Below are positions 3,711 to 30,911 of a stretch of DNA of 32,000 bases, in pieces; within the stretch, counting starts at the first letter, position 1, and each line of letters begins with the position of its first letter. Position numbers and translations under genes: made by a program. Origin of the DNA: an uncultured Chloroflexia bacterium (GTDB lineage Bacteria; Chloroflexota; Anaerolineae; Anaerolineales; Anaerolineaceae). Location: assembly GCA_963704755.1 (NCBI GenBank), contig OY969938.1, positions 4,050,001 through 4,082,000 of the forward strand. Reading direction: 5' to 3'. Under the pieces are notes generated by a model. It searched no databases and was not told the DNA's origin. It saw only the letters and a list, made by a program, of their open reading frames with translations.

Positions 3711-3728
3711 CCCGTAATTTTTCAAGCG

Positions 3729-3760
3729 ACAGGAGGGCATATTGCCCTCCTGTTTTTATT
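3729..3760 (+). terminator. Rho-independent terminator of the lipoprotein gene
   Basis: ACAGGAGGGCA (3729-3739), loop TAT, TGCCCTCCTGT (3743-3753), then TTTTTATTT. Confidence 0.75.
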
Positions 3761-4101: not shown

Positions 4102-4659
4102 ATGAGACAATTTGATATTCGAAATATTCGTTTTCATAAACCAGGGAGCCCTGCCAAACCCAAATTGGCTAAAGGCCAGGGGCTGGTCGAGTTTGCTTTA
4201 GCGTTGCCCGTTTTTCTATTTTTAATGGTCGGAGTAATCGAGTTCGGCTGGTTGCTGTTTGTTTACAGCCAGACCTATACCGCCAGCCAGGAAGCAGCGC
4301 GCTACGGGGCAGCCGTCCAAAATCTCGGGGATTGTGTTGGAATTGTCGATGCCGCGGTCCGCGTGGGGCATTTTGGCGGGGTTGCCAGCGGCAGCAATGT
4401 CCAGGTTTATTACGATAATAGTTCCGCCAGCGCCACTGACCTGGCCTGGAACAAAGACGATCCTATTCCGGATGATTTCAGGGCCTGCGATTTTATCGAC
4501 TACAGCAATCCGGAGAGTATTCAGTTGGGAGACCGGATCGTTGTGCAGGTCTCGGTAAACTTTGTTCCCCTGTTTGGCATCATCCCCCGGTCCACCGTTG
4601 TAACCGCCGCTTCCCGGACTGTCATTAAGGATGTTCAAGTCTATGCAAGCACGCCTTGA
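4102..4659 (+). CDS. TadE-like (Flp pilus assembly / pseudopilin-like) protein
   Basis: N-terminus ...KGQGLVEFALALPVFLFLMVGVIEFGWLLF matches the TadE N-terminal motif (G-x-x-x-VEFAL plus a TM helix). GAGG lies 6 nt upstream of the ATG. Confidence 0.8.
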   Translation: MRQFDIRNIRFHKPGSPAKPKLAKGQGLVEFALALPVFLFLMVGVIEFGWLLFVYSQTYTASQEAARYGAAVQNLGDCVGIVDAAVRVGHFGGVASGSNVQVYYDNSSASATDLAWNKDDPIPDDFRACDFIDYSNPESIQLGDRIVVQVSVNFVPLFGIIPRSTVVTAASRTVIKDVQVYASTP

Positions 4660-4693
4660 CTCTTTTTTCATCAACTTTTTGCGAAAACCGGCC

Positions 4694-5155
4694 ATGGAAA
4701 AGCAACCGCGTGAAATCAAACCGTCCGAAAAAGGACAAAGCCTGGTCGAGCTTGGTTTTGCCCTGGTCATCATGCTGATCTTGCTGGCAGGCGTGGTTGA
4801 CCTGGGCACGATAATTTTCGAATATGTGACGATGCGAGATGCCGGCCAGGAAGGGGCGGCCTACGCTTCGGTTTATCCCACCGCATGCAGCCAGATCGCA
4901 GAACGGGTTAAATCCAACCTGCGGGTTCAAGACAACACCGATACCGTGGTCACGGTCCAGATCAACGGAAACAATTGTTCGAGCGATGTGGCCTATACCG
5001 GCCTGGCCTGCGCACCGAACGCCATCAAAGTCATTGTGAGCCAACCCCATTACCGGATCACCACCCCGCTCTTAGGGACGATCCTGGGCTCCAACACGCT
5101 CAATATCAGAGCATCGATCACGGATACCATTATCAGGCCCCTGGCCTGTCCTTAG
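4694..5155 (+). CDS. TadE-like protein (second paralogue)
   Basis: Track ORF 4631-5155, trimmed to ATG 4694 (MEKQPREIKPSEKGQSLVELGFALVIMLILLAGVVDLG...). It has the same TadE N-terminal motif. Confidence 0.75.
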   Translation: MEKQPREIKPSEKGQSLVELGFALVIMLILLAGVVDLGTIIFEYVTMRDAGQEGAAYASVYPTACSQIAERVKSNLRVQDNTDTVVTVQINGNNCSSDVAYTGLACAPNAIKVIVSQPHYRITTPLLGTILGSNTLNIRASITDTIIRPLACP

Positions 5156-5156
5156 A

Positions 5157-5206
5157 CCTACCAGAAATCAGGTGTTTGAAGCCACGAACACCTGATTTCT
5201 GGTAGG
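5157..5206 (+). repeat. Intercistronic 20-bp perfect stem-loop between the tadE-like and tadG-like genes
   Basis: CCTACCAGAAATCAGGTGTT (5157-5176), 10-nt loop, AACACCTGATTTCTGGTAGG (5187-5206). The arm resembles the CCGAATTTGAGGTGTTTG arms at 1779 and 11155. Confidence 0.85.
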
Positions 5207-5219
5207 TACTTAATTATTT

Positions 5220-6600
5220 ATGCCAACTCAGTTGGAGGTTAATTTGAATATCCAAACCGTGCACCATAAAGGTCAAATTCTCGCTATTTTTACTGTGGTG
5301 ATCATGGTACTTTTGGGTCTCGCGGCCCTGGCGCTGGACGGGGGCATGATTTACGTCGACCGTCGCAATGACCAGAGCGCAGCAGACGCCGCATCCCTGG
5401 CCGGGGTAGGTAAAGCGTCGGTCTATTTCCAGACCCACAGCACTGATTGCAATGGTTCTATTCCGTTAGCCCGCACGGCAGCGATCAGCCTGGCCGGTGA
5501 AAACCATTTCTCCGGCCTCCAAGCGTATTCCCGCGAGATGGATGTGCCTGCGACCGGCGCCCATGGCGTTTGGGCCGAATGCCGCGCTGAGGGGAGCGAT
5601 ACCTATTTATACGTCCATACCTATATCACTACCCAGGTTTCGACCAATTTCGCGCACCTGTTTTATAAAGGCCCGATTGAGAATTCGGTCACGTCGGTTG
5701 CCCGGGTCAAATTACCGACGAATGCTGCCTATGGAGCGGCGATCACTTCGTTGAACACAAGCTGCGCCTCAAACAACGGGATGACCTATAACGGCGGCGT
5801 CGATATCCATATATCCGGCGGCGGGATCCATTCCAACTCCTGCATCACCAAGGATGGCACAGTGGGCGACATCATCGTGGATGAAGGCGGCGTCACCTAT
5901 GTAAACAGCGTCAATTCCCACGCCGCGTCGGATATCCTGCCAACACCGGAACAGGTCAGCGGCACATACGGCCGCCTGGATTACGGCACGGTCAACTGTT
6001 CGGCTTTATCCACTGGGGATTCTGGTGGAGATATCCAGGTTTCCAACCATCAGAGTAAGACCATCCACCCCGGGCGGTATTCACAGATCCGGATGACCGG
6101 AGGCAGTTTGACCATGGCAGCGGGCCTGTACTGTTTGAGCGGAAATTTTTCGGCTAATGGCGGTTCGCTCACGGCGAACGGCATTACCATTTATGCTTCA
6201 GGAAGCAATTCAAACATTAGCATTAACGGCGGCGTATCCACTTATTTGAGCGCCGCATGCGACCTTAACTGGACCGATGACCGGGCCTGTAAACCCTCCG
6301 AGGTCGCCGTTCAAAATATCCCGGCTCCAAACACCCCCAAGGCTGGCTTGCTCGTCATCTTCGCGGATGGTAACACCGGAAGCGTCTCGTTGGCCGGCGA
6401 TTTCGGGCTCTTCATTCATCGGGACGATCTATGTCCCGGATGGGGACGTCAGCGTAGGCGGCAACAGCGGGGTAGGCCAGACGTATAACACCCAATTAGT
6501 CGGCAATAACGTTACCGTGGGCGGGGATGCGAATATCGACATCCGGAATATCCCCCGCGGCGATTTCAAGCAGCAATCGGCTGTAGATATGTTCAAGTAA
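5220..6600 (+). pseudogene. TadG-like pilus-associated protein, interrupted by a +1 frame change near 6400 (true frameshift, sequencing error or recoding)
   Basis: ORF 5220-6488 begins with a TadG-type N-terminus (KGQILAIFTVVIMVLLGLAALALDGGMIYV). The family-typical C-terminal pattern (SSFIGTIYVPDGDVSVGGNSG...VGNNVTVGGDANI) is encoded in the +1 frame (track ORF 6277-6600). The frame-1 tail after 6405 (LFIHRDDLCPGWGRQRRRQQRGRPDV) looks out-of-frame. Confidence 0.6.
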
Positions 6601-7374: not shown

Positions 7375-9021
7375 ATGGATGATCGGTTAGCCCAAGAATT
7401 GGCGGAATGCCTGGATCTCATCGAAAATTCAGGCGCAAGCCTGGAGGAATGCCTGCGGCGTTTCCCGGAGGATGCTGCTGAACTGGCGACTTACCTGGAA
7501 ACCGTTCTTCAGGTGCATTCCTTCAGTGAATTACAGCCCAGCGAGAGCTTTTCCAGGAATGCTGCCAGTCGGTTGTTGGCCAAACTGCCAGATTATCCGC
7601 GAAAGCCGGTTACCCGACCGGCTGGCCGGCCTGTCCATCCCGCCCGTTTATCCCGGCAGCTCACCTGGATGACGTTGATCACGCTGTTCCTCATCCTGTG
7701 CACGGGTGTGCTGACTGTAAAAGCTGCCGATTACGCCTTACCCGGGCAGATGCTCTACCCGGTTAAAACCACCGTGGAAAATACCCGCCTGGCTTTGAGC
7801 AACGCGAATAATGCCGTTGCGCTTAACCTCCAATTTTCGGAACGCCGCCTGGCGGAGGCAGCCCAGTTGGAAGCCAGCGGTAAATCCGAGCTGATCCCGG
7901 TAACGGTGGCCAATTTCTGGCTGACCCTGGAGCGAGTATCCGCAACTGTCTCTTATTCTCCCCAGACCGCCGGAACCGGCGATGCCGCCCACCTGGCCAA
8001 TTTTACCGGCCTGGTCCAGGGGATGAGCTTGCTGATGAATAGAATGGACCCACAACAGCAAAACCAGGTCGTTCAAACGATGGCCGCCTATTCAACCCCG
8101 CCGGTTGTTTCCAACCAGGAGCCTGCCTTGAATTCCAACTGTGCAGCGGGCCAGACCGACGCGACCGGGAAAGTTATCGCCGAGCAGTACGGCCTGACTT
8201 ACGACGAGGTGATGGGCTGGGTCTGTAATGGTTCCACATACGGAGATATCATCATTGCCCTGGAAGCCAGCAAAAACACCGAATTATCCACCGGCGACTT
8301 GCTGCTACTCAGAGACCAATTGGGAAACTGGGATACGGTTTGGACCAGCTTGCACCGTCTCGATCCAAACCAGCATGGCTCCGAGACAGCCAGCCTGGAT
8401 GGCCAGACCCGCGGCCAGTACTGCCAGGCCAGCGCCCCGCAGCAGCCGGTCGCCGAAAACCTGGCCCAAACTTATGGGGTTTCGTACGAAAATGTCATTA
8501 ATTTGTTCTGCCAGGGATACGGTTTCGGAGAAATCATGCTGGCTTTACAAACGTCTCAGACCGCCAATTTACCGCCGGACAACTTACTCACGCTAAAGAA
8601 TGAAAGCGGAGGCTGGGGCCAGGTATGGCAGGATTTGAACCTGATCGGGAAGGATAAGCCCAAGGCCACCGAGACCGTAACACCTACAGAGGCTGAGCTT
8701 CCCAGTGCGACCTCGACCCCCGGGCCGGAACAGACCAAAGACCTGCCCGCCAACGCCGGCCAGAAGACGAAAGACCCTACCATCCAGCCTACTGAAAAGC
8801 CCACAAAAGCGGTTCCGCCCGGTCAGACCAAGACACCGCCGGGCAAGGAAGCCACGGCTAACGTCAACAAACCGACTGCCAAAGCCACGAATGCCCCGCC
8901 GGGCCAGGAAGCCACGGCCAACGACAACAAACCGACTGCTAAACCCACCAATGCCCCGCCTGGCCAGGAAAAAACCAAAGAAAATTCCACCCCCAAAAGT
9001 ACAAATCCACACAAACCTTGA
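7375..9021 (+). CDS. Membrane-anchored anti-sigma factor-like protein with a DUF5667-like segment, two copies of a ~58-aa Cys-containing domain and a repetitive Pro/Thr/Lys tail
   Basis: Starts 3 nt after the sigma gene stop. The N-terminal cytoplasmic segment is followed by a TM helix (LTWMTLITLFLILCTGVLTV). YPVKTTVENTRLAL...LQFSERRLAEA resembles DUF5667. Internal duplication at 8179-8352 and 8464-8647. Confidence 0.7.
   Translation: MDDRLAQELAECLDLIENSGASLEECLRRFPEDAAELATYLETVLQVHSFSELQPSESFSRNAASRLLAKLPDYPRKPVTRPAGRPVHPARLSRQLTWMTLITLFLILCTGVLTVKAADYALPGQMLYPVKTTVENTRLALSNANNAVALNLQFSERRLAEAAQLEASGKSELIPVTVANFWLTLERVSATVSYSPQTAGTGDAAHLANFTGLVQGMSLLMNRMDPQQQNQVVQTMAAYSTPPVVSNQEPALNSNCAAGQTDATGKVIAEQYGLTYDEVMGWVCNGSTYGDIIIALEASKNTELSTGDLLLLRDQLGNWDTVWTSLHRLDPNQHGSETASLDGQTRGQYCQASAPQQPVAENLAQTYGVSYENVINLFCQGYGFGEIMLALQTSQTANLPPDNLLTLKNESGGWGQVWQDLNLIGKDKPKATETVTPTEAELPSATSTPGPEQTKDLPANAGQKTKDPTIQPTEKPTKAVPPGQTKTPPGKEATANVNKPTAKATNAPPGQEATANDNKPTAKPTNAPPGQEKTKENSTPKSTNPHKP
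8836..8970 (+). repeat. 60-bp in-frame tandem repeat (about 2.2 copies) in the anti-sigma C-terminal tail
   Basis: CCGCCGGGCAAGGAAGCCACGGCTAACGTCAACAAACCGACTGCCAAAGCCACGAATGCC (8836-8895) is repeated at 8896-8955 with a few substitutions, and partially again at 8956-8970. It encodes PPG(K/Q)EATAN(V/D)NKPTAK(A/P)TNA. Confidence 0.85.
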
Positions 9022-9311: not shown

Positions 9312-11123
9312 ATGGCTCAAGACCCGCAAGAACGCTATCAGGACAGCGACCTTTATCGCATTCGTCATTCGCTGGCCCACATTATGGCCCAGGCGGTTAT
9401 GGAAATGATGCCGGAGGCCAAATATACCATTGGCCCACCGATTGAAAACGGCTTTTATTATGATTTCGATCTTCCGCGTACCTTGACTCCCGAGGACCTG
9501 GAAAAAATCGAAAAACGCATGCGCCAGATTATCGCCGGGCGGCACGATTTCGTGCGCAAGGTCGTCAGCGCAGACGATGCGCGCCAGATCTTCAAAGACC
9601 AACCCTATAAACTGGAGCTGATCGATAACCTGGAAAAGGGGGAGACGGACGAACACGGCAACCCCCTGAGTGAAAAACCGGAAATCTCGATTTACACCTC
9701 CGACACCTTTGTGGACCTGTGCCGCGGCCCGCACGTGCAAAATACCTCGCAGATCAATCCCTCGGCCTTCAAGCTGATGAGCGTGGCCGGCGCTTACTGG
9801 CGCGGCGACGAAAAGAATGCCATGCTGCAGCGCATCTACGCGACTGCCTGGCATAACAAGGACGAGCTCAACCAGTACCTGCAAATGCTGGAAGAGGCCA
9901 AACGGCGCGACCACCGCAAGCTGGGCAAGGACCTGGAGATCTTTATCTTCGACGATGAAGTCGGCCCTGGCCTGCCGCTATGGCTGCCTCGCGGCGGCAT
10001 TCTGATCGAAGAGCTGGAAAAGCTGGCCAAGGAAAAGGAAGAAGAAGCCGGCTACGACCGGGTACGAACGCCTAACCTGACCAAGGAAGACCTGTTCTTA
10101 CGCAGCGGTCACCTGCCTTACTACGCCGAGAGTATGTATCCGCCCATGGAACTGGAAGGCGTGCGCTATTACGTCAAGCCGATGAACTGCCCCTTCCACC
10201 ACAAGATCTTTGCCAGCAAACCGCGCAGCTACCGCGACCTGCCCGTCCGCCTGGCCGAGTATGGCACCTGCTACCGCTACGAAAAGAGCGGTGAGCTGTT
10301 CGGGCTAATGCGGGTGCGCTCGATGCAGATGAACGACGCCCACATCTACTGCGCTGAAGACCAGTTCGAGCAGGAATTCATGGGTGTAATCGACCTGTAC
10401 CGTATCTATTTCGACCTGTTCGGTATCGAAAAATTCGTCATGCGCTTCAGCACCCATCACGCCAAGGGCCTGGGCAAGAAGTATGTGGATAACGAACGCC
10501 TGTGGCTGAAGACCGAAGATATGGTCCGCCGGGCCATGCAGAACGGCGGTGTGCCTTTCGTTGAAGTGGCCGATGAAGCCGCTTTTTACGGCCCCAAGAT
10601 CGATGTGCAGATCTGGAGCGCCATCGGCCGCGAATTCACCCTGGCCACCAACCAGGTTGATTTTGCCGTGCCCGAACGTTTCAACCTGACCTTTGTCAAC
10701 CGCAATGGCGAAGATGAAACCCCGCTGTGCATCCACCGCGCGCCGCTTTCTACCCATGAACGCATGGTGGGCTTCCTGTTGGAGCATTACGCTGGTAACT
10801 TCCCGGTCTGGCTGTCACCGGACCAGGTCAGCATCATCCCGATCACCGACTCGCATAACGATTTCGCCGTGCAACTGCAGAAACGCATGCGGGCAGCCGG
10901 CATCCGCGCCAAAGCCGACCTGGGCTCCGAGCGCATGAACGCCAAGATCCGCAATGCGCAATTGTTCAAAGTGCCCTACATGGCCGTCATTGGCGATCAG
11001 GAAATGGCCAACAACACGGTAGCCCTGCGCAAACGGGATGGCTCCCGCCAGAACGACCTGCCGATTGAGGAATTCATCCAGCAGGTTAGCCAGCGTATCA
11101 AAACCCGCTCGGCAGACTTATGA
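9312..11123 (+). CDS. thrS: Threonine--tRNA ligase (short form lacking the N-terminal TGS domain)
   Basis: 603 aa. Editing-domain motifs: RHSLAHIMAQAV and DLCRGPH. Class II catalytic core: RDHRKLGKDLEIF, MNCPFHHKIF, YRYEKSGELFGLMRVRSMQMNDAH. Anticodon-binding C-terminus. Confidence 0.95.
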   Translation: MAQDPQERYQDSDLYRIRHSLAHIMAQAVMEMMPEAKYTIGPPIENGFYYDFDLPRTLTPEDLEKIEKRMRQIIAGRHDFVRKVVSADDARQIFKDQPYKLELIDNLEKGETDEHGNPLSEKPEISIYTSDTFVDLCRGPHVQNTSQINPSAFKLMSVAGAYWRGDEKNAMLQRIYATAWHNKDELNQYLQMLEEAKRRDHRKLGKDLEIFIFDDEVGPGLPLWLPRGGILIEELEKLAKEKEEEAGYDRVRTPNLTKEDLFLRSGHLPYYAESMYPPMELEGVRYYVKPMNCPFHHKIFASKPRSYRDLPVRLAEYGTCYRYEKSGELFGLMRVRSMQMNDAHIYCAEDQFEQEFMGVIDLYRIYFDLFGIEKFVMRFSTHHAKGLGKKYVDNERLWLKTEDMVRRAMQNGGVPFVEVADEAAFYGPKIDVQIWSAIGREFTLATNQVDFAVPERFNLTFVNRNGEDETPLCIHRAPLSTHERMVGFLLEHYAGNFPVWLSPDQVSIIPITDSHNDFAVQLQKRMRAAGIRAKADLGSERMNAKIRNAQLFKVPYMAVIGDQEMANNTVALRKRDGSRQNDLPIEEFIQQVSQRIKTRSADL

Positions 11124-11154
11124 TTTTAACTACCCGGGTCATGTAAAATAGTCC

Positions 11155-11220
11155 CCGAATTTGAGGTGTTTGCGCGGGCGTTGCCCGTGCAAACACCTCA
11201 AATTCGGATTTCTTTCTGGG
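11155..11220. repeat. Palindromic element of the same family as 1779-1845
   Basis: CCGAATTTGAGGTGTTTGC...GCAAACACCTCAAATTCGG (11155-11207). The GC-rich tip pairs GCGGGC with GCCCGT (includes one G-U pair). Tail: ATTTCTTTCTGGG. Confidence 0.85.
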
Positions 11221-11244: not shown

Positions 11245-11282
11245 AAAATCAGCGAACCGTGTTCAAGGTTCGCTGATTTTTT
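11245..11282. terminator. Bidirectional intrinsic terminator between thrS (+) and the TMEM175-like gene (-)
   Basis: AAAATCAGCGAACC (11245-11258) pairs with GGTTCGCTGATTTT (11267-11280). A-run and T-run sit on either side. It overlaps the last codons of the minus-strand gene. Confidence 0.7.
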
Positions 11283-11874
11283 CTTCCTGCTGGATCAACC
11301 GTTCGATGCGCCGGTCAGGAATCAGCCACATCGCAGACACGACTGCATAGAGCGCCACGGCCATCCAGGGGTAATAAAAAATGGCCAGCAAGATGGCCAC
11401 CGCATAAATCACCACTGAAATAATGCCCTTGAAATCGCCGCCGACGGCTTTGGCCAGCAACGATTCGCGCCCGTGCAGGCGGATCAGGGTATGGGTAAGC
11501 AAAAAATAGGCAATCGCAGAGAGCAGCAAAACTCCGCCATACACCGCCACCGGCAGGGCGGAAAAATGGTTTTCACCCATCCAGGCCGTGACAAAGGGCA
11601 CCAGGGTAAGCCAGAAGAGCAGGTGCAGGTTGGCCCACAACACCAGGCCGTTGACGTGTTTGACCAACTGGTACAGGTGATGGTGATTGTTCCAATAGAT
11701 GCTCAGGAATACAAAGCTGAGCAGGTAGCTCAAGAAGATGGGCACCTGCGGGCGTAAAGCCGACAAGTCGTCCCCCAAAGGGATTTTTAGTTCCAGAACC
11801 ATGATGGTAATAATGATGGCGATCACCCCATCACTAAATGTCTCCAACCTGCTTTTTCCCATAGGCTGCCCCAT
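11263..11874 (-). CDS. TMEM175-family (DUF1211) potassium channel
   Basis: Hallmark N-terminal RLETFSDGVIAIIITIMVLEL motif and six hydrophobic helices. Confidence 0.85.
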   Translation of the reverse strand: MGQPMGKSRLETFSDGVIAIIITIMVLELKIPLGDDLSALRPQVPIFLSYLLSFVFLSIYWNNHHHLYQLVKHVNGLVLWANLHLLFWLTLVPFVTAWMGENHFSALPVAVYGGVLLLSAIAYFLLTHTLIRLHGRESLLAKAVGGDFKGIISVVIYAVAILLAIFYYPWMAVALYAVVSAMWLIPDRRIERLIQQEEKISEP

Positions 11875-15802: not shown

Positions 15803-16876
15803 ATGAAAGCAATCCAAACGAAATTTCTTTATAAATTCGGGCGTACTCTTTTACTGATAATTATTCCGATTTATATTACGGCGCTATTTTTCCAGTTTCC
15901 TGGGGTCGATGGATATTACCGGGCAGAATTTGGCGATTTAATCTGCGGAACGGCTTATCGTCCCTTTGTCTATCGATTCCTGACCCCTTTGCTGGTCCGT
16001 GGATTTTCTTCAATCTTTTCTCCAGCCTGCCCGCTTCTGCCGGGCGCTTCGCCATCCTTGCGGGCTGCGCCAATTTCACAGTTCATCGTTACTTTTATCC
16101 TTTTATGCGCTTTTCTTATCGGCTTTTTTCTGGCTTTTCGATACCTCTTTACGACCTTTTTTCGGGTTCCAGTAGTTCACCTGGATGTATTTTGCTTTAT
16201 TGTCCTGTTGGGGGTACCCACCTTTTTTATATATCATAGTTATCTCTATGATTTCTCGACTTTATTTCTGTTCACACTTTGCCTGGCGCTTATGGCCCGT
16301 CAAAAGTGGGGATTGTACGCCATCTTTTTTGTGGTCGCTTGCCTGAACAAAGAAACCACCATTCTTTTAACGGTGATTTATTTTTTATATTTTTTAAAAC
16401 GATTACCGAAAAAACAATTTGTCGGGTTATTGCTGGTTCAGCTCATCGCGTTCACTGTGGTTCGGGCCGGAATCCTTTGGGCATTTAGAAATAACCCGGG
16501 GACATCCATCGAATTCCACCTGATCGATCACAATATTCCTTATCTTATGCAGCCATATACGTTGTTTTCATTTTTGTCGGTGATCATTCTGGCCATTCTC
16601 ATTTATTATCATTGGTATGAAAAGCCTTCATTCCTCAAAATTAGCAGCCTGATTTTTTTCATCCTGTTGGGTACTGCGTTTTTCTTTGGCTATATCGAAG
16701 AATTGCGGGATTATTATGAGGTATATCCGATCTTTGTGCTGCTGATGATCCATTCGATTGCAAGAATATTGGAGATTGAAATAACACCTTTGTGGCAATC
16801 CGGCCATAACGGAAAGGAAGCGGTTTTGTCTAAAATTGATAACGCAGCCAGGGGAGACACATCAAACCGGCTATGA
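15803..16876 (+). CDS. Polytopic membrane protein of unknown function (GT-C-like candidate)
   Basis: Track ORF starts at GTG 15794. ATG 15803 (MKAIQTKF...) is preferred. About 10 TM helices, AT-rich codons, and a 4-nt ATGA overlap with the next gene. Confidence 0.5.
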   Translation: MKAIQTKFLYKFGRTLLLIIIPIYITALFFQFPGVDGYYRAEFGDLICGTAYRPFVYRFLTPLLVRGFSSIFSPACPLLPGASPSLRAAPISQFIVTFILLCAFLIGFFLAFRYLFTTFFRVPVVHLDVFCFIVLLGVPTFFIYHSYLYDFSTLFLFTLCLALMARQKWGLYAIFFVVACLNKETTILLTVIYFLYFLKRLPKKQFVGLLLVQLIAFTVVRAGILWAFRNNPGTSIEFHLIDHNIPYLMQPYTLFSFLSVIILAILIYYHWYEKPSFLKISSLIFFILLGTAFFFGYIEELRDYYEVYPIFVLLMIHSIARILEIEITPLWQSGHNGKEAVLSKIDNAARGDTSNRL

Positions 16877-18036
16877 AAAATTTCTTTGTAAGGTTTATTG
16901 ATGCAGCCAGAAAAGTTTTGCCGTATTTTGTAGTGCTGCCTTTGATCTTTCTTCTGCTGATCAATCTACGCCTGGTTCTCCTGCAGTCGGAATTGCTCGA
17001 TATGGGGTCGTTCTTTGCCGCCGGATTCGCCTGGGTCCACCACCTGAATGTATATGACCCGAACCTGCCATATTTACATAAATCGGTCGACCTTGTGACC
17101 GGACTGGTCAACACCGGGGTGAACGCCAATCCACCTGTAACGGCTTTCTTTTCGTCGATCCTAATGCTGTTCGATCCTCATGCGTTTCTGCTTGGATGGC
17201 GGATTTTTTCACTCATATTGTATGTGGCCGCTGTGGTTCTGCTTTCTCGCCGGTATCATCCGCACCTGCTCGTCGTCGTTTGGGCATTGGCTTTGCCGGG
17301 CCTCTGGCAGACCCTGGAATATGGCCAGATTTACATTCCGCTGGCTTTTCTGATGACAATTGCCTGCCTGGCAACCGATCGCAAGTGGGATTTGCTAGCC
17401 GGAATCGCAATCGGGATTATGGCAGCCGTCAAGCCGAATTTTCTGCTGGTCCTGTTCATTTTGGTTTTCTCCAGGTCCTGGAAAACCATCGCCGCGGGCG
17501 CCGGAACCTTTTTGTCCCTTTCCGTTCTGCCGCTTGTGCTGCGTGGGCCGGGGGTGTATTGGGACTGGTGGGAGGCTTTGAAAGCGATGCCTGCCGCGAC
17601 CAGCGATTTCAATACCTCGTTCGCGGAGCTATTCGGCAAAATGAGCAGTCCCTGGATTTTATACGGCTTTTGCGCGTTGTTCGTTCTGCTGGTTTGCCTG
17701 TTGATCCGCTCGCGGAATTTGTCCACCCGGGAGGCGCTTGCATTGGGATTAGTCGCGTCTTTCCTGGTTTCTCCAATTGCCTGGATTGGCTATACCAGCA
17801 TCTTGCTGCCCCTGTTCTTTAGCCGGAGGTGGTCGGCCGCGACCCTGCTCTCGGCGGTATTATTGGTGACCCCGCCCCCGATTATGCGCTCGATTGAGGC
17901 AACCTATCCAGGCCTTATTCTGCTGACCAGTTGGTGGTATGGCTGGAGTGTCTTCCTGCTCTTCATCGATACCTTTCTGGCAGACTCGCTGCCGCGCTTT
18001 CAGAGCTTCAAGGTTACCCTGGTCCTGGATAAGTGA
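16873..18036 (+). CDS. Polytopic membrane protein, DUF2029/GT87-like (GT-C fold glycosyltransferase candidate)
   Basis: Multi-TM protein. GQIYIPLAFLMTIACLATDRKWDLLAGIAIGIMAAVKPNFLL resembles the DUF2029 core. Translationally coupled to the upstream gene. Confidence 0.55.
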   Translation: MKNFFVRFIDAARKVLPYFVVLPLIFLLLINLRLVLLQSELLDMGSFFAAGFAWVHHLNVYDPNLPYLHKSVDLVTGLVNTGVNANPPVTAFFSSILMLFDPHAFLLGWRIFSLILYVAAVVLLSRRYHPHLLVVVWALALPGLWQTLEYGQIYIPLAFLMTIACLATDRKWDLLAGIAIGIMAAVKPNFLLVLFILVFSRSWKTIAAGAGTFLSLSVLPLVLRGPGVYWDWWEALKAMPAATSDFNTSFAELFGKMSSPWILYGFCALFVLLVCLLIRSRNLSTREALALGLVASFLVSPIAWIGYTSILLPLFFSRRWSAATLLSAVLLVTPPPIMRSIEATYPGLILLTSWWYGWSVFLLFIDTFLADSLPRFQSFKVTLVLDK

Positions 18037-18063
18037 AACGACTCAAGTCTTTGTTAGAAAGTT

Positions 18064-18118
18064 CCCGAAATTGAAGAAATTGCGAGGACTTTACCCTCGC
18101 AATTTCTTCAATTTCGGG
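18064..18118. repeat. Palindromic element (24-bp perfect stem) of the 1779/11155 family
   Basis: CCCGAAATTGAAGAAATTGCGAGG (18064-18087), 7-nt loop, CCTCGCAATTTCTTCAATTTCGGG (18095-18118). Left flank AGAAAGTT and right flank GTTCATTACC match the family flanks. Confidence 0.85.
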
Positions 18119-18128
18119 TTCATTACCT

Positions 18129-18175: not shown

Positions 18176-19474
18176 CTACTCTCCCTTCCCCCCATACCAA
18201 TCCGACCGGCGTAAGGGCAGCCCACTGCGGCCGTTCTCGTCTGGCTTGACCAGCAGGGATTGGTACAGGTTCAGGCGGCGGGTTTCGAAACCGTGCACCG
18301 ACCCGCTCATGTACAGCCGCCAAACGCGGTAGGTCACTTCGCCGACCTCCTTGACCGCCTTCTCGTGATTGGACTCCAGGCGTTTCACCCACTGGCGCAG
18401 GGTCAGGGCGTAATGCTCGCGCAGGCTCTCCACATCGCGCACCTCGAAGCCGGTGTCTTCGGCGGTGGTCAGCGTCTGGCTGACCGGCAACAGCTCGCCG
18501 TCCGGGAAAACGTAGGTGTCGCTGAAGCTGTTGGGTTCGTCCGCATCGCCGGCCCGCTTGGCGATGCCGTGATTGAGAAAAACCCCGCCGGGTTTAAGCA
18601 GGCGCAGGGCCTTCTCGAAATAGGTGCGCAGCATCACAGCCCCGACGTGCTCGAACATGCCCACGCTGGCCAGGGCGTCGTAGGGGCGATCCTCGGCCAG
18701 CTCACGGTAATCGCGGACCTCCACCCGGCAGCGGCCGGCCAGCCCGGCGGCCTGGATGCGCCGGTTGGCCAGCTCGGCCTGCGGAGCGCTGAGGGTGATG
18801 CCGGTAGCGTCCACGCCGTATTTTTGGGCGGCATGCATGACCAGCCCGCCCCAGCCGCAGCCTACGTCCAGCAGGCGCATACCCGGTTGCAAACGCAGCT
18901 TGCGGCAGATGTAGTCGATTTTATTGAGTTGGGCCGTATCCAGGTCGGTCTGGGGTGTCTCGAAGTAGGCGCAGGAATAGACCATGCGTGAGTTGAGGAA
19001 GAGCTGGTAAAAGTCGTTCGATACATCGTAATGGTAGCGCACCGCCTGGCGGTCGCGCTCGATGGAGTGTAGTTTGCCGGAAAGATGTGCCGGTCCGCGT
19101 GGCGTCGCGGCGTGTTCTGGGCCGGCGGGCAGGCGCAGCAGATCGCGGGCGGCGCGGATCTTTTTGCTCCAGCCGCCGGTGGTCTCGACCAGGCCATCCA
19201 CCACGGCGAAGACACCGATGATGTCGCCTTCGACGTCGAAGTCGTCGTACAGGTAAGCCTCGGCCACGCCGACTTCGCTGCCGGGCAGGAACATGGCCCG
19301 CAGAGCGCCGGGATGATTGAGCACCAGGGTAGTCGCCTTGGGCCGGTCGTCCGGCCAGCAAGTGCCGTCCCACAGCCGGAAGCCGACCTTATCTCCAATG
19401 ATGGGTCCGAATAAATCATCCAGTAAATGGACGGATGTTTCCACAGCCTCGTTACTTTTAATAACAGTATCCAT
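18176..19474 (-). CDS. cfa: Cyclopropane-fatty-acyl-phospholipid synthase family SAM-dependent methyltransferase
   Basis: YDVSNDFYQLFLNSRMVYSCAYF, SAM motif LLDVGCGWGGL, and LTLRQWVKRLE are typical of the CMAS family. AGGAGG lies upstream. Confidence 0.9.
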   Translation of the reverse strand: MDTVIKSNEAVETSVHLLDDLFGPIIGDKVGFRLWDGTCWPDDRPKATTLVLNHPGALRAMFLPGSEVGVAEAYLYDDFDVEGDIIGVFAVVDGLVETTGGWSKKIRAARDLLRLPAGPEHAATPRGPAHLSGKLHSIERDRQAVRYHYDVSNDFYQLFLNSRMVYSCAYFETPQTDLDTAQLNKIDYICRKLRLQPGMRLLDVGCGWGGLVMHAAQKYGVDATGITLSAPQAELANRRIQAAGLAGRCRVEVRDYRELAEDRPYDALASVGMFEHVGAVMLRTYFEKALRLLKPGGVFLNHGIAKRAGDADEPNSFSDTYVFPDGELLPVSQTLTTAEDTGFEVRDVESLREHYALTLRQWVKRLESNHEKAVKEVGEVTYRVWRLYMSGSVHGFETRRLNLYQSLLVKPDENGRSGLPLRRSDWYGGKGE

Positions 19475-22687: not shown

Positions 22688-23282
22688 TTGGAAGTAGATA
22701 ATTTTTAATTATGTAGCCCGGCTTTCAAAGCCGGGGGGTAGCTGAGGCTGCCGGGGAGGGCAGGCAAAATCCCTCGCCGCTGCGGGAAGTGGTCAGGTGG
22801 GAGGCGAGGCTGGGGAATTAGGCCTTCGCTGGAGGAGAAACGCGATTTCAGGGCGGAGTTTACCCTCATCCCTACCTTCTCCCTGAGAGGGAGAAGGCGT
22901 TAAGTTCTACTCGCCAAAGTGAAGCGGATGAAAAAGGTATAGATTGATCCGTGAAGTTGCTTTGGGGACTTGCATATTTTCATTTGGCCAGGACCAGACC
23001 CTCAACCCCTTTCGGGTAAGGTCAAGTGAGAAGCGAGGCTGGCGAATTATGTCTTCGCTGAAGGCGAAACGCGTTTACGGACTGGCGCTCTGCCCCCCTC
23101 TGCGCCGCTTCCCCCCAAATCAAAAACGGATTTGGAGGGAAGGGCCAGATTCCTCCCCTAAAATCCGCACTTTGGATTTTTTGGGGGGTTAGGAGGAGGC
23201 AAAAAGCGCTGGACGACCAGGTCATTGGCGGGTAAAACTGGCGCTCTGCCTTTTTTCTTTTCTCGGTGAACCCTTTGGCAAA

Positions 23283-23570
23283 TCCTCTTTTCCACTTAGC
23301 ATGCTCTGCTCCTGCAACACATTAGCTGACCAGTCGATAAGAGCGGCCTCGGCCGACAGAAGGGAGGGAGAGACCGGGCCGATCTGCTTTGGGCATTCGT
23401 TCTTTTAGGAGGAATTTCTCTTCTTTTCCATACTCCACGATTGTCTTTCCTACTCAGCGTGCTCTGCGCCTCTGCGGTGCAATATCTGACCAGTCGATAA
23501 GAGCGGCCTCGGCCGACAGAAGGGAGGGAGAGACCGGGCCGATCCGCTACAGGCCATTGTCTTTTCGACC
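23283..23570. repeat. Two ~130-nt units, 160 bp apart, sharing a 59-nt perfect core
   Basis: CTGACCAGTCGATAAGAGCGGCCTCGGCCGACAGAAGGGAGGGAGAGACCGGGCCGATC occurs at 23326-23384 and again at 23486-23544. The flanks are diverged but alignable on both sides. Confidence 0.9.
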
Positions 23571-25496: not shown

Positions 25497-26840
25497 TTAA
25501 ATTTTAATCCCTAAAGCCTCGGCCTGGGCTTTACGCCAGCGGGCCAAACGCTCGGCAACGGCGGCTTCGTAACCCATTTCACCGGGATGGTAAAACTGGT
25601 GACCAAGTAAGTCGGTGGGCAGGTACTGCTGGCCGACGTGATGGCCGGGAAAGTTGTGAGGATACTGGTAGCCCTGGCCGTGGCCAAGGCCTTTGGCGTC
25701 GCGGCTGGAGTCCATCAGGTGGACCGGCACCGGACCGGCGCCTTCCTGTTCGATTTGCGTGCGGGCTTCATAGAATGAAAGGGTCGAGTTGGATTTAGGC
25801 GCGGTCGCCAGATAAAGAGTGGCCTCAACGATCGGGAAAATCCCCTCGGGCATGCCAATGTATTCGTAGGCCTGGGCGGCCGAATTGGCCACCACCACAC
25901 CCAGCGGGTCGGCCAGCCCGATATCTTCGCCGGAAAGGACGATCAGCCGGCGCAAGATAAAGCGCGGGTCTTCTCCCGCGGCCAGCATTTTGGCCAGCCA
26001 ATACAGAGCCGCGTCCGGGTCGGAGCCACGGACCGACTTGATGAAAGCCGAGATCGTGTCGTAGTGGGCGTCGCCGCTCTTGTCGTAGATCACCGCCCGG
26101 CGCTGGATCGATTCCTGGGCTACATCCAGGGTGACGTGGATCAGGCCGGTTTCATCCGGCGAGGTGGTCTCTACAGCCAGTTCTAATGCGTTGAGCAGGT
26201 TGCGCGCGTCGCCGCCGGCCACATGGGCCAGGTGCTGGCGGGCATCGTCGTCAATGCGTATAGCTTTGCCGCCGTAGCCACGCTCTGGATCGTGGAGGGC
26301 CTGGTCGAGAATGCGCTCCAGGTGGTCTTCGCGCAGGGGTTCCAGTTGAAACAGGCGCGAGCGCGAAACCAGGGCTGAAATGACGTCGAAATAGGGGTTT
26401 TCGGTGGTCGCGCCGATCAAGGTGATCATACCGCTTTCCACCTGGGGCAGCAGGGCATCCTGCTGAGCCTTGTTCCAGCGGTGGACCTCGTCCACGAAAA
26501 GGATGGTGCGCTTGTGGTACAGCCGCCGGCGTTCGGTCGCATCGGCAATGACCCGGCGCAATTCGGCTACCCCTACCAGGACGGCCGAAATACTTTCGAA
26601 TTCAGCCTGGGTGGAGTTGGCCACAATTTGGGCCAGGGTGGTTTTACCGGTGCCCGGCGGGCCGAAGAAAATGATCGACGAGAACAGCCGGTCGGCCTCG
26701 ATGGCTCGCCGCAGCAGTTTACCCGGGCCGATGATGTGCTCCTGGCCGATGAATTCGGCAAACGTGCGCGGACGCATCCGCGCGGCCAGCGGCGCTTCGT
26801 GCTCCAGGCGTTCTTGCATGGCGTGGTCAAACAGGTCCAT
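25497..26840 (-). CDS. rarA: Replication-associated recombination protein A (AAA+ ATPase RarA/MgsA)
   Basis: Walker A GPPGTGKTTLA, Walker B ILFVDEVHRWNK, and the MgsA C-terminal domain (DAHYDTISAFIKSVRGSDPDAALYWLAKML). Confidence 0.95.
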   Translation of the reverse strand: MDLFDHAMQERLEHEAPLAARMRPRTFAEFIGQEHIIGPGKLLRRAIEADRLFSSIIFFGPPGTGKTTLAQIVANSTQAEFESISAVLVGVAELRRVIADATERRRLYHKRTILFVDEVHRWNKAQQDALLPQVESGMITLIGATTENPYFDVISALVSRSRLFQLEPLREDHLERILDQALHDPERGYGGKAIRIDDDARQHLAHVAGGDARNLLNALELAVETTSPDETGLIHVTLDVAQESIQRRAVIYDKSGDAHYDTISAFIKSVRGSDPDAALYWLAKMLAAGEDPRFILRRLIVLSGEDIGLADPLGVVVANSAAQAYEYIGMPEGIFPIVEATLYLATAPKSNSTLSFYEARTQIEQEGAGPVPVHLMDSSRDAKGLGHGQGYQYPHNFPGHHVGQQYLPTDLLGHQFYHPGEMGYEAAVAERLARWRKAQAEALGIKI

Positions 26841-26846
26841 GGGTAG

Positions 26847-26876
26847 ATTCTACCATAAAGCAAGAGGGATTAGAAT
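26847..26876. promoter_or_regulatory. Divergent promoter region: extended -10 TGGTAGAAT for rarA (minus strand) and a mirror TAGAAT on the plus strand facing the repeat array
   Basis: On the minus strand, TGG+TAGAAT (complement of 26847-26855) ends 6 nt before the rarA ATG (26840). On the plus strand, TAGAAT sits at 26871-26876. TAGAAT-AAAA-ATTCTA (26871-26886) is a palindrome. Confidence 0.45.
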
Positions 26877-26884
26877 AAAAATTC

Positions 26885-27770
26885 TAGGAGGTGATGCGGT
26901 GTTTCGGTGTTGCGGTGGTTCGGTGTTGGGGCGTTGAAGCCCCCCAACAAAATCCGTTCCTTGAAGATATTGGCTTTCTCAATCTATCTGTAGGTTGGGT
27001 TGAGCGGTATTTTAATTGGCTTTGGTTGTTTGTGGCAAGAGCGAAACCCACCGGTTTGCCTCATTACCTTGTCGCCTCGTTGACTTCCTGCCGGCCTGTT
27101 GGGTTCGGGCAGGGCTTTCCCCGGTTGGCGTATTGCTCGTACGCAAATTTTTCGGATGGGCCCGAACCCAACCTACAAGCTAGGTGGTGATGCGGTGGTT
27201 CGGTGTTGCGGTGATTCGGTGTTGGGGCGTTGAAGCCCCCCCAACAAAATCCGTTCCTTGAAGATATTGGCTTTCTCAATCTTACTGTAGGTTGGGTTGA
27301 GCGGTACTTTAATTGGCTTTGGTTGTTTGTGGAAAGAGCGAAACCCAACGGTTTGCCTCATTGCCTTGTCGCCTCGTTGACTTCCTGCCAGCCTGTTGGG
27401 TTCGGGCAGGGCTTTGCCCGGTTGGCGTATTGCTCGTACGCAAATTTTTCGGATGGGCCCGAACCCAACCTATAAGCTAGGAGGTGATGCGGTGGTTCGG
27501 TGTTGGGGCGTTGAAGCCGCCCCAACAAAATCCGTTCCTTGCAGGTATTGGTTTTCTCAATCTTACTGTAGGTTGGGTTGAGCGGTACTTTAATTGGCTT
27601 TGGTCGTTTGTGGAAAGAGCGAAACCCAACGGTTTGCCTCATTGCCTTGTCGCCTCGTTGACTTCCTGCCGGCCTGTTGGGTTCGGGCAGGGCTTTCCCC
27701 GGTCAATACTCTTGCAATCAGCCATTGTTTAATAAGAGCCCGAACCCAACCTACGATTCGGGTCTTTTCC
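26885..27770 (+). repeat. Tandem array of three ~296-bp units (starts 26885, 27181, 27478), each built of three GTTGGG/CCCAAC stem-loops
   Basis: Direct reading. Units 1 and 2 differ by 12 substitutions plus one 1-nt indel in my hand alignment. Unit 3 lacks a 16-nt micro-repeat and has a replaced 34-nt loop. Details are in the findings. Confidence 0.95.
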
Positions 27771-27818
27771 TCATTGCCTCAATCCCTGTACCAACAAAAA
27801 GAAATCGCTTGTTTATAA

Positions 27819-27847
27819 TTGACTGACTGCTCACTCTTTGATATAAT
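27819..27847 (+). promoter_or_regulatory. Near-consensus sigma-70 promoter of tetR, producing a leaderless mRNA
   Basis: TTGACT (27819-27824), 17-nt spacer, TATAAT (27842-27847), then 6 nt (CGGAAT) and ATG 27854. No SD. Confidence 0.55.
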
Positions 27848-27853
27848 CGGAAT

Positions 27854-28420
27854 ATGGCCAGACCAAAAAGCATGGACAAACGCAACGCGCTCATGGCGGC
27901 GGCAGCCCGGGTGATTGTCACGCAAGGGCTGAGCGCACCGACGGCGATGATCGCTCAAGAGGCTGGGGTAGCCAACGGCTCGCTATTCACTTACTTCGAG
28001 ACCAAAGCCGATCTGTTTAACCAACTCTATCTTGAACTGGAAACCGAAATGGCGTCTGCTGCTATGCAGGGGCTTCCGGTCGAGGCTGGGCTCCATGAGC
28101 AGTTATTTCAAGTCTGGTCGAATTGGATGGACTGGGCAGTGTCCAGCCCTGAAAAACGGCGCGCGTTAGCGCAGCTCCAGGTTTCCGATGAGATCACACC
28201 GGCGAGCCGCGCTGCGGCGCATAAAACCAAGGCCGGCATCGCCGACCTGCTGGAACGGATTCGCGCCAAGGGTCCCATGCGCGACACCTCGATGGGCTTT
28301 GTCCTTGCGATGATGAGCTCGCTGGCGGATGCAACGATTGATTTCATAATCAGTGACCCAGCCAACGCGGACTCGCACCGCAAAGATGGGTTCGAAGCCC
28401 TTTGGCGGGTGATCGGATGA
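27854..28420 (+). CDS. TetR/AcrR-family transcriptional regulator
   Basis: N-terminal HTH: RNALMAAAARVIVTQGLSAPTAMIAQEAGVANGSLFTYFETKADLF. Confidence 0.9.
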   Translation: MARPKSMDKRNALMAAAARVIVTQGLSAPTAMIAQEAGVANGSLFTYFETKADLFNQLYLELETEMASAAMQGLPVEAGLHEQLFQVWSNWMDWAVSSPEKRRALAQLQVSDEITPASRAAAHKTKAGIADLLERIRAKGPMRDTSMGFVLAMMSSLADATIDFIISDPANADSHRKDGFEALWRVIG

Positions 28421-28689
28421 TTTTTTGTAACGCTTCAGGCGCCGGTTAAAATTCGAGGGTTTCCCCGGTCGGGTTGGACAGTCGCGATTTTTTTTAACCT
28501 TATAAATGACCGACTGGACAATCATCTAAACGAAGAAATCTGTCACGGACTGTCAGGTAACTTTTGGGACCGGCCGGAAAGGCAGCCGGTCCATCGTTGA
28601 ACTTCTCGGGTGAGGTTGCACCGGCCGGACCACGGTGTACAACCTCACGGATGTGCATAAAAAAATTCACTTGAAAGGTTAGGGTTAAC

Positions 28690-29490
28690 ATGGATTTGAA
28701 ATTGGCAGGAAAAAGAGCATTGGTGACCGGATCGAGTTCCGGAATTGGTAAAGCCATCGCGAATCTGCTCGCTGAGGAAGGCGTGGCGGTCGTGGTGCAT
28801 GGCCGCGATGAAGGGCGGGCCAACACGGTCGCGGAGACGATCCGTTCCGTGGGCGGGAAAGCCGAGGTAGCTCTCGGTGATCTCGCCAGCGACGCCGGAG
28901 CCGATGCGGTTGCCGCTGCGGTGCTCTCCGGCGGGCCGGTTGATATTCTGGTCAACAATGCCGGCGTCCTCAACTTCTCCTCGTGGACGGATGTGGCTGT
29001 TACCGACTGGGTCGAGAAATACAACATTAACGTGATTGCCGGTGTGCGCATGATCCAACGCCTGGTACCTCAAATGCGCGAGCGCCACTGGGGCCGGGTG
29101 ATCCAGATTGGGGGCGGCCTGGCGCTGCAGCCTTTTGCGGGCCAACCGGGTTACAGTATGACGCTGGCAGCTCGCCACGATCTTGCAGTATCTCTGGCGC
29201 GTGAACTGAAGGAGACCGGCGTGACTTCCAATATCGTGGCGCCCGGCGCGGTCTTGACAGAGGAGGGTCGGCCTGCGCTGGTCAGTATGGCGGCCGCTCA
29301 TGGCTGGGGGGAGACGTGGGAAGAAATCGAACGCAACGCTGCGCAGGCCATCGCTCCAAATGATGTAGGCCGGTTTGCCCGGCCGGAGGAAATCGCGGCG
29401 GCAGTCGCTTTCCTGGCCAGCCCTGTTGCCGATTATGTGAGCGGGGCTACCTTTCGTGTTGACGGCGGTACAATCCGCTCTGCTTTTTGA
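28690..29490 (+). CDS. Short-chain dehydrogenase/reductase (SDR) family oxidoreductase
   Basis: TGSSSGIGKAIA cofactor motif, NNAG, and an SDR-typical C-terminal FLASPVADYVSGATFRVDGG. Confidence 0.9.
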   Translation: MDLKLAGKRALVTGSSSGIGKAIANLLAEEGVAVVVHGRDEGRANTVAETIRSVGGKAEVALGDLASDAGADAVAAAVLSGGPVDILVNNAGVLNFSSWTDVAVTDWVEKYNINVIAGVRMIQRLVPQMRERHWGRVIQIGGGLALQPFAGQPGYSMTLAARHDLAVSLARELKETGVTSNIVAPGAVLTEEGRPALVSMAAAHGWGETWEEIERNAAQAIAPNDVGRFARPEEIAAAVAFLASPVADYVSGATFRVDGGTIRSAF

Positions 29491-29711: not shown

Positions 29712-30911
29712 ATGAATGATTTTGATCAAGAACAGCCCGATCCGCAATCGGAGGTTACCCGCCCGATCCGGATTACGGTTGATCCGAATGAGCATTACCA
29801 GGCCGTGCGGACGGAATCGCCCCGCCCGGCGCAGAACAACCCCAACCCGGCCGTTCCTCAGCCTGTACAACCAGCGCCGGTCCAGCCTGGCCCGCAACAG
29901 TACGCCAATTATCCGGCCCGGCCGGCCCCGCAGCCGGTCAATGTGGTCCCCGGAACGCAATCCCCACATTTCCAGGCCAGACAGCCGGCTCCTCAGCCGG
30001 CTCGCAGTAACGCCGGCTGGCCTAATCAACAGCCGCAGCCGGTCAAAGTAGGGTTTGGGCCGCACCCGATTGCGGTACCCAAGCCGCCTAAAAAGCGCCG
30101 GGGCGGGGGTTGCCTGCTCACCTTTTTGATTGCCCTCGTCGCGCTGCTGGCGGTGTATTTCCTGGCGCCAGTGCGCACCAACGTGCTCCTGCTGGGCATC
30201 GACCGTGCCCCTGACGGCAGCTATACCGGGCGCAGCGACACCAATATTTTAATCAGTGTGATCCCGCTCAAGCCGACCGTCAATATGCTCTCCATCCCGC
30301 GCGACCTGTGGGTGACCATCCCCGGGGTGGGCGAGCAGCGCATCAATACGGCCAATTTCTTCGCCGAAGCGCAAAATCCCGGCTCAGGGCCACAGGCGGT
30401 CATGGATACCATTAAACAGAACTTCGGTGTGGACGTGCACTATTACGCCCGCGTGCGCTTCGACAGCTTTATGGATATTGTCGACGCGATGGGTGGGGTT
30501 ACCATCCACCTGAGTGAGCCCACGGCCGGCTATGACGCCGGCACCTACACACTCGACAGCACCCAGGCGCTGGCTTTTGCGCGCAATCGTACCGGCACCG
30601 ACGACTTCTTCCGCATGGCCCAGGGGCAGATCCTGCTCAAGGCGGCCATATCGCAGTTACTCTCACCGGCCTCCTGGCCGAAACTGCCAGCGGTGTTCAG
30701 CGCCTTGATGAAAGCCGTGGATACCAACATCCCGGCCTGGCAGTGGCCGCGATTGGGCCTGGCCCTGCTGCGGGCCGGTCCGAATGGCATCAACAACCGC
30801 ACGCTGGATCGCGAAATGGTCACATCCTGGACCACCAACGAAGGCGCGCAGGTGCTGCTGCCTAACTGGGACGCGATCAACCCGGTGTTAAAAGAGATGT
30901 TTGGGCAATAA
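29712..30911 (+). CDS. LytR-CpsA-Psr (LCP) family protein with a ~110-aa Pro/Gln-rich cytoplasmic N-terminus
   Basis: TM helix CLLTFLIALVALLAVYFLA. LCP core: LLLGIDRAPDGSYTGRSDTNILISV...MLSIPRDLWVTIPG...RINTANFF...ALAFARNR. Confidence 0.85.
   Translation: MNDFDQEQPDPQSEVTRPIRITVDPNEHYQAVRTESPRPAQNNPNPAVPQPVQPAPVQPGPQQYANYPARPAPQPVNVVPGTQSPHFQARQPAPQPARSNAGWPNQQPQPVKVGFGPHPIAVPKPPKKRRGGGCLLTFLIALVALLAVYFLAPVRTNVLLLGIDRAPDGSYTGRSDTNILISVIPLKPTVNMLSIPRDLWVTIPGVGEQRINTANFFAEAQNPGSGPQAVMDTIKQNFGVDVHYYARVRFDSFMDIVDAMGGVTIHLSEPTAGYDAGTYTLDSTQALAFARNRTGTDDFFRMAQGQILLKAAISQLLSPASWPKLPAVFSALMKAVDTNIPAWQWPRLGLALLRAGPNGINNRTLDREMVTSWTTNEGAQVLLPNWDAINPVLKEMFGQ

Follow-up and report, generated by a model that had tools for sequence, protein, structure and literature searches.

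The window analysed here is a stretch of 32,000 nt from contig OY969938.1 of an uncultured Chloroflexia bacterium placed in the Anaerolineaceae, and coordinates given without a locus name refer to it. A rarA-type AAA ATPase gene (25497-26840, minus strand; NF009881, 726 bits) and a gene for a TetR-family regulator (27854-28420, plus strand) are separated there by an intergenic region of 1013 nt, from which both genes are directed away. This region holds an array of three head-to-tail repeat units. Our analysis indicates that the array is very probably a cluster of repetitive extragenic palindrome (REP) elements with GTAG tags, multiplied in tandem, similar to the clusters of bacterial interspersed mosaic elements (BIMEs) in E. 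coli and linked to REP-associated tyrosine transposases (RAYTs). An earlier note, made from the sequence alone, had described the array as unexplained; it had missed both the tag as a REP signature and the divergence of the flanking genes. Because these genes lie on opposite strands and diverge, the array is upstream of both promoters, and the mRNA of neither gene therefore covers it.

The entire cluster occupies 26884-27756, with no strand assigned, and consists of units at 26884-27179, 27180-27476, and 27477-27756. Tandem Repeats Finder reported a repeat at 26884-27703 with a period of 297, 2.8 copies, 92% matches, and a score of 1398, and the three units can be aligned end to end (alignment A1) with a mean column identity of 87%. 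Counted from the C of CTAGGAGG, the units start at 26884, 27180, and 27477, and counted from the T they start at 26885, 27181, and 27478, giving periods of 296 and 297 nt, so that the three units of about 296 bp in the earlier note are confirmed. Identity between units is 87-96%, including the sequence between the stem words. Of the 12 copies of the stem word GTTGGGTT in the window, where 1.35 are expected, 11 lie within the array, whose hairpins reuse this one word, as the earlier note had read them.

Each unit contains a 187-nt element with the ends GTAGGTTGGGTT ... AACCCAACCTAC, made of two inverted hairpins with their GTAG tags facing outward. The layout of this dimer is GTAG, hairpin 2, 45 nt, hairpin 3, and CTAC. 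GTAG stands immediately 5' of hairpin 2, while the sequence immediately 3' of hairpin 3 is CTAC in units 1 and 3 and CTAT in unit 2. We refer to the tagged hairpin 2 as REP-a; it lies on the plus strand at 26990-27052, 27287-27349, and 27568-27630 in units 1 to 3. In unit 1 it reads GTAG followed by GTTGGGTT-GA-GCGG ... GC-GA-AACCCA(C)C, with a mutated 3' arm (the ACCCACC change that had been recorded before). Hairpin 3 with its tag, or REP-b, lies on the minus strand at 27098-27176, 27395-27473, and 27676-27754. In unit 1 it is a perfect 13-bp stem, GTTGGGTTCGGGC / GCCCGAACCCAAC, followed by CTAC, which is GTAG on the minus strand; in unit 2 the tag has decayed to CTAT, and in unit 3 the same stem and tag are present with a 33-nt part of the loop that differs. 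The 45-nt spacers between REP-a and REP-b, for which no strand is assigned, are found at 27053-27097, 27350-27394, and 27631-27675.

The remainder of each unit is a linker of about 110 nt, in which a head resembling a Shine-Dalgarno (SD) sequence is joined by a 16-nt micro-repeat and by a small hairpin that has no tag. The head of unit 1 (26885-26927, plus strand) comprises TAGGAGGTGATG and two copies of the micro-repeat GCGGTGKTTCGGTGTT, and the heads of the other units, also on the plus strand, contain two copies (27181-27223) and one copy (27478-27504). These counts of 2, 2, and 1 agree with those made previously, and 0.01 copies are expected by chance. The SD-like 10-mer AGGAGGTGAT, which is found nowhere in the window outside the array, is exact in units 1 and 3 as the earlier note had it for every unit, but unit 2 carries AGGTGGTGAT, with one mismatch. 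Hairpin 1 (26925-26948, 27221-27245, and 27502-27526, no strand assigned) has the arms GTTGGGG / CCCCAAC, a stem of 7-8 bp, and a loop of about 10 nt. No GTAG or CTAC is found next to it, and it is possibly a degenerate REP.

We compared the folds of these structures with those of shuffled sequences. The 13-bp stem of hairpin 3 is intact in all three units, and as single-stranded DNA it gave z scores of -4.1, -4.4, and -5.4 in units 1 to 3, while hairpin 1 was moderately stable (z -2.8). Hairpin 2, with an 8-bp stem and a 47-nt loop, gave z -0.3 in unit 1, where the 3' arm is ACCCACC, and z -1.5 in unit 2. Pairing is also possible between the outer arms of hairpins 2 and 3 (GTAGGTTGGGTT / AACCCAACCTAC), which bears out the mutually exclusive folds proposed before. 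Taken whole, a unit gave z -0.3 as DNA, and as RNA -1.65 on the plus strand and -0.84 on the other strand; it has no significant excess folding energy. The loop of hairpin 3 was exchangeable, as had been noticed: in unit 3, positions 27704-27736 (columns 268-300 of alignment A1) hold an unrelated sequence of the same length within the intact stem. In units 1 and 2 this loop contains a small GCGTA..TACGC stem followed by AAATTTTT (27128-27144 and 27425-27441), which a scan flagged as terminator-like, and both are missing from the swapped loop of unit 3.

The same hairpins occur in other genomes. A search of species-representative genomes with the exact 13+13-nt pattern of the hairpin-3 arms gave three matches, in two metagenome-assembled genomes (MAGs) of Litorilinea aerophila and one Anaerolineae MAG (loci L001-L003). 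The stem and tag of REP-b of unit 1 recur in all three, each of which has one two-hairpin element with the same tagged ends, set in either orientation within a short gap between genes. We also scanned metagenomes for GTAGGTTGGGTT-N30-60-AACCCAAC and found the pattern on at least 120 contigs. The matches listed, to which the following counts refer, fall into two forms, namely short-loop doublets (for example GTAG-GTTGGGTTGAGGAACGAAACCCAAC-spacer-GTTGGGTTTCGTTCCTCAACCCAAC-CTAC and GTAGGTTGGGTTGAGGAACGAAACCCAAC-spacer-GTTGGGTTTCGTTCCTCAACCCAACCTAC) and long-loop hairpins like those of the window, in which 29-62 nt (median 47) separate the core words. On contigs of 3 kb or longer, 22 of the 97 hairpins were within reading frames of 150 codons or more, and such frames cover 80% of the bases, so the hairpins are biased toward extragenic positions. 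In 102 simple hairpins, a 5' GTAG came with AG or GA after the core in 38 cases and a 3' CTAC with AC or TC in 32, and the two forms are mirror images of one asymmetric hairpin. The inner arms came in 77 variants and formed on average 5.1 extra pairs, compared with 2.2 when arms were re-dealt among hairpins; stem pairing is thus maintained although the sequences vary.

When whole units were compared by BLASTN with 123 loci, the match was limited to the tag and core stem (15-23 nt), and the head, spacer, and loops were unmatched. Tandem organization was found in some of these loci as well. L016 and L020 contain tandem units of 184-301 nt with an arm repeat of about 40 nt in 1-4 copies (L016 1-1100 and L020 1-1320; the repeat reads GTTGGGTGGTATGCGGCGGTTGGCAT...), and in L004 a REP is accompanied by five 15-nt copies of GTTGGGTTTYGCAAA (5177-5264). 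Slippage at the level of the arms appears to be common to this REP family in general, and the 16-nt micro-repeat of the window, with its 2, 2, and 1 copies, is the same kind of local instability.

The enzyme associated with these hairpins is a RAYT. In locus L039, an open reading frame (ORF) of 179 aa is directly bracketed by an inverted pair of tagged hairpins, and its product scored 194 bits (cutoff 80, E 1e-57) on the NCBIfam model NF047646, "REP-associated tyrosine transposase", as well as matching Pfam Y1_Tnp. RAYT remnants were detected by tblastn next to a REP in L036 and L030. The L039 protein has thousands of homologues, and we independently fetched three of these on long contigs (L124, from an Anaerolineaceae MAG; L125; and L126); in each one the RAYT gene has tagged long-loop hairpins on both sides. 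With L039, this makes four independent loci in which the hairpins directly flank a RAYT gene. In L126, the REP lying just upstream of the RAYT gene has GTAGGTTGGGTTGAGCGG ... AGCGAAACCCAAC in common with hairpin 2 of the window, with identical arms (alignment A2), and hairpin 3 can be aligned with the right-hand RAYT-flanking REPs (A3). An alignment of the window dimer with a dimer beside the L126 RAYT agrees in 119 of 202 columns, some of them in the spacer. The spacer is partly similar (CGCCTC..CCAGCC and TTCCTGCC) to the L126 spacer and to sequence downstream of the RAYT. This likeness of the two dimers and their spacers is suggestive only. Immediately downstream of the RAYT gene in L125 (10545-11146) are tandem units of about 270 nt with three hairpins each. 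The RAYT flanking is a property of these related loci, and the window array is assigned to the class by its sequence resemblance to them. As a separate observation, most RAYT homologues of this REP family among the matches listed were on contigs of about 0.9-2 kb, typically about 1 kb, which suggests that the flanking REP clusters fragment short-read assemblies.

GTAG-tagged REPs have been reported in Proteobacteria, Cyanobacteria, Chloroflexi, and the Planctomycetes-Verrucomicrobia-Chlamydiae (PVC) group (Di Nocera, De Gregorio and Rocco 2013, PMC3733652). There, REP dimers may have their tags outside, RAYT genes with REPs on their flanks are called REPtrons, and REP clusters are described as dimers reiterated in tandem together with pieces of flanking DNA. 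The window array shares with these elements the stem-loop with an unpaired GTAG at one end, the dimers tagged outside, the tandem clusters with flanking DNA, the extragenic location, and the RAYT-flanking relatives. Our comparison was made with the general description of these elements, which recognises 24 numbered families (GTAG-1 to GTAG-24), and on the points tested the array fits the description except for element size and divergent position. The window dimer resembles a REPtron minus its transposase gene.

Other known systems offer further parallels. Like REP/BIME elements of E. coli and their enzyme TnpA-REP, the window elements have a 5' GTAG beside an imperfect palindrome, inverted pairs with a linker, tandem pairs, and a Y1/HUH enzyme, but their stem sequence is different, their loops are long and variable, and their cognate enzyme is predicted. 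Pseudomonas REPINs (REP doublets forming hairpins) are likewise units of two inverted REPs with outer arms that can pair, as GTAGGTTGGGTT and AACCCAACCTAC can, and the short-loop metagenome relatives, such as the GTAGGTTGGGTTGAGGAACGAAACCCAAC-spacer-GTTGGGTTTCGTTCCTCAACCCAACCTAC form, are classic doublets of this kind. Unlike in REPINs, each REP of the window folds into a separate long-loop hairpin, and complementarity between the two REPs is confined to the 12 outer bases. A text search of the literature for GTAGGTTGGGTT, AACCCAACCTAC, and other strings returned only unrelated primer matches, and the motif does not appear in the text of Nunvar 2010 or in the supplements of Di Nocera 2013.

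As units of REP elements linked to RAYT transposases, the array would be an ordinary selfish repeat rather than a new structured RNA. Y1/HUH enzymes have been reported to recognise and cleave REP hairpins with GTAG (Ton-Hoang 2012, PMC3333891; Messing 2012, PMC3479197; Corneloup 2021, PMC8266576). By analogy with TnpA-REP of E. coli and with IS200/IS605 enzymes, the hairpins would form where the DNA is single-stranded, as on the template of the lagging strand, and a RAYT (HUH/Y1) encoded elsewhere would read the stem and GTAG and cut and rejoin the DNA there, a reaction that would spread the elements in trans. The anatomy of the array suggests that one dimer with its linker most likely gave rise to three copies by unequal recombination or by replication slippage between stem words. 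The unequal micro-repeat numbers and the swapped loop may have come from this same instability, or else another REP copy may have supplied them by exchange; alternatively, the loop of unit 3 might derive from an older resident REP at the edge of the array. No host function need be involved, and any effect on the rarA and tetR promoters through DNA structure or protein binding would be secondary.

Several observations weigh against assigning the array to GTAG-tagged REPs. The window hairpins span 63-79 nt (63 and 75 without tags), with stems of 13 or 8 bp and 29-62 nt between the core words, while classic REPs measure 20-40 bp and have loops of mostly 2-15 nt according to PMC3733652, although short-loop members of the same family do occur. 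The same source places REPs mostly between convergent or co-directional genes, so that a cluster between divergent genes is a minority situation. Only one cluster is visible in the window, which also lacks a RAYT gene by tblastn with the L039 RAYT, and no RAYT cluster from the source contig was among the best 120 matches of two homologue searches. Hairpin 2 by itself is thermodynamically weak, the linker (head, micro-repeat, and hairpin 1) has no counterpart among the 123 loci, and the swapped loop is not explained by simple duplication. Three traits of the array are unusual: the long and variable loops, the site between divergent promoters, and the one swapped loop. We consider it improbable that the long-loop GTAG-GTTGGGTT hairpins are a distinct, undescribed REP subclass whose loop of 30-60 nt would be exchangeable cargo, swapped between copies as the RAYT cuts and rejoins the conserved stems, an idea hinted at by the replaced loop of unit 3. 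In this view the cluster between divergent leaderless promoters might also be a structural insulator or protein-binding platform co-opted by the host.

Explanations that do not involve a RAYT must also be weighed. The earlier note considered a single structured transcript of about 0.9 kb plausible, and the array would then be a novel non-coding RNA array of three modular units with alternative folds. This is compatible with the stability of hairpins 1 and 3, with the plus-strand RNA fold that marginally beats shuffles, with the frequent transcription of REPs in other bacteria (PMC3733652), and with the TAGAAT box upstream (26871-26876) and the weak CCCGAA/TTCGGG hairpin and TCTTTT downstream (27739-27768), both of which are present as the note described them. 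It is nevertheless very unlikely, and such a transcript is unsupported: the whole unit folds like its shuffles and is not significantly structured, the array lies upstream of both divergent promoters and outside the mRNA of either gene, it is missing upstream of rarA in relatives, related loci share REP stems and tags and not loops, spacers, or head, and the elements are found facing either way with respect to the genes around them. The Rfam check that had been proposed covered the whole window at gathering thresholds and the part 26700-27950 at permissive E-values, and no family of Rfam 15 reached its gathering score, the best sub-threshold E-values being about 1-2.2. The statement that the array matched no known family thus holds for Rfam and CRISPR, but not for REP elements, the same ones of which flank RAYT genes elsewhere; with this match to a described repeat family, the array is no longer unexplained. 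A CRISPR array was rejected in its own right, as the sequence between the stems is also repeated, at 87-96% identity between units. It is barely credible that the units are three paralogous genes for small proteins (82-99 aa) with a strong SD (AGGAGG) ahead of ATG or GTG. One frame (PQQNPFLEDIGFLNL...GFGQGF) is open in all three units and AGGAGGTGAT is an exact complement of the anti-SD in units 1 and 3, but the gap from AGGAGG to ATG is only 2 nt, and unit 2 combines a mutated SD with an additional C that shifts the start out of frame. The frame passes straight through the REP stems and has a different end in unit 3. Most of the changes from unit to unit are non-synonymous and affect the second codon position (non-synonymous versus synonymous 5/2, 7/3, and 4/1), no NCBIfam model matched, and the exact ORF products are not in a collection of about 15 billion proteins. 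The shared frame has no coding signature, in agreement with the non-coding nature claimed for the array.

Mobile elements of other kinds were considered as well. [quoted passage not shown] Against this extremely unlikely origin, inspection of the element ends, in L001-L003 as in the window, showed no target-site duplication (no systematic test having been made), single hairpins with one tag are common, and the sole transposase found repeatedly between or beside the elements is a single-strand Y1/HUH enzyme, the RAYT, and not a DDE enzyme. The core consensus of integron attC sites is GTTRRRY/RYYYAAC. The core words GTTGGGT/ACCCAAC fit both halves of it, and the sole Rfam near-match, on hairpin 1, was to the integron-linked sRNA-Xcc1, so that an integron-type cassette array or attC cluster deserves mention. 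We give it almost no credence: the polarity is reversed, since attC reads RYYYAAC...GTTRRRY and the window hairpins read GTTGGGTT...AACCCAAC on either strand, the units have no cassette ORFs, the sRNA-Xcc1 match is far below threshold (E 2.2, 19.5 bits; gathering 53), and the elements associate with RAYT and not with an integron integrase, for which no directed search was made. Finally, repeats of this kind break or confuse assemblies, as the RAYT contigs of only about 1 kb among the matches listed illustrate, and one unit could have been inflated to three by the assembler. However, substitutions, two indels (of 16 nt and 1 nt), and the replaced 33-nt loop set the copies apart, which are therefore distinct sequences and not one identical repeat joined wrongly; the contig that holds the window is 4.87 Mb long (4,871,623 bp), comparable arrays are present in independent assemblies, and an artefact is hardly believable.

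The genes on either side of the REP cluster both appear to be leaderless, judging from their upstream sequences. A promoter-like site upstream of tetR (27819-27847, plus strand) reads TTGACT-17-TATAAT, agrees with the consensus at 11 of 12 positions, and ends 6 nt before the ATG at 27854. On the minus strand, TATGGTAGAAT lies 6 nt ahead of the rarA ATG (in the region 26841-26880), and a -10-like box, TATGGTA(G/A)AAT, stands just before the rarA ATG in two relatives, L127 and L128, at 6 nt in L128. The closest RarA proteins, with about 82% identity, come from Bellilinea, Longilinea, and Anaerolinea. In the two relatives, whose RarA proteins are 81-82% identical, just 126 and 106 nt lie upstream of rarA, with no core words, and we found no array at this position and no conservation of synteny. 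In L128 (region 2620-5401), a Bellilinea relative, the divergent neighbour of rarA is a LytR-CpsA-Psr (LCP) gene 106 nt away, while in the window the REP array, tetR, and a short-chain dehydrogenase/reductase (SDR) oxidoreductase gene separate rarA from the LCP gene at 29712-30911. Since the array is missing upstream of the relatives' rarA and, in L128, rarA has another divergent neighbour, the array and its neighbours are lineage-specific, which speaks against a conserved regulator of rarA. The tetR-SDR pair (27854-29490) may have come together with the repeats or beside them.

Apart from the REP cluster, the window contains a second, unrelated family of near-perfect palindromes (1764-1839, 11139-11214, and 18049-18124) with arms of 24-26 bp, loops of 3-7 nt, and a common core, GAATTTGAGGTG...CACCTCAAATTC. 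Two of the three lie in short gaps between convergent ORFs (9312-11123 plus and 11263-11874 minus; 16873-18036 plus and 18176-19474 minus), and the family looks like bidirectional terminators or another dispersed repeat family. Further repeated segments in the regions 22791-23565 and 1602-1658 are 86 nt at 23320 and 23480 (87% identity), 57 nt at 22791 and 23020 (84%), and 57 nt at 1602 and 23095 (82%), and a tandem repeat of 60 nt is present at 8827-8971 (2.2 copies, 90% matches).

For annotation, the value of this result is that a feature with the appearance of an elaborate array of RNAs is identified as a REP cluster, so that pursuing it as a new riboregulator or an operon of small proteins is not warranted. 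The GTAGGTTGGGTT-tagged family to which it belongs is very widespread in metagenomes and reaches the Anaerolineae, exists in short-loop doublet and long-loop forms, and has no entry in Rfam. The loop swap and the arm repeats of variable number provide concrete substrates for studying how RAYT and REP elements rearrange DNA.

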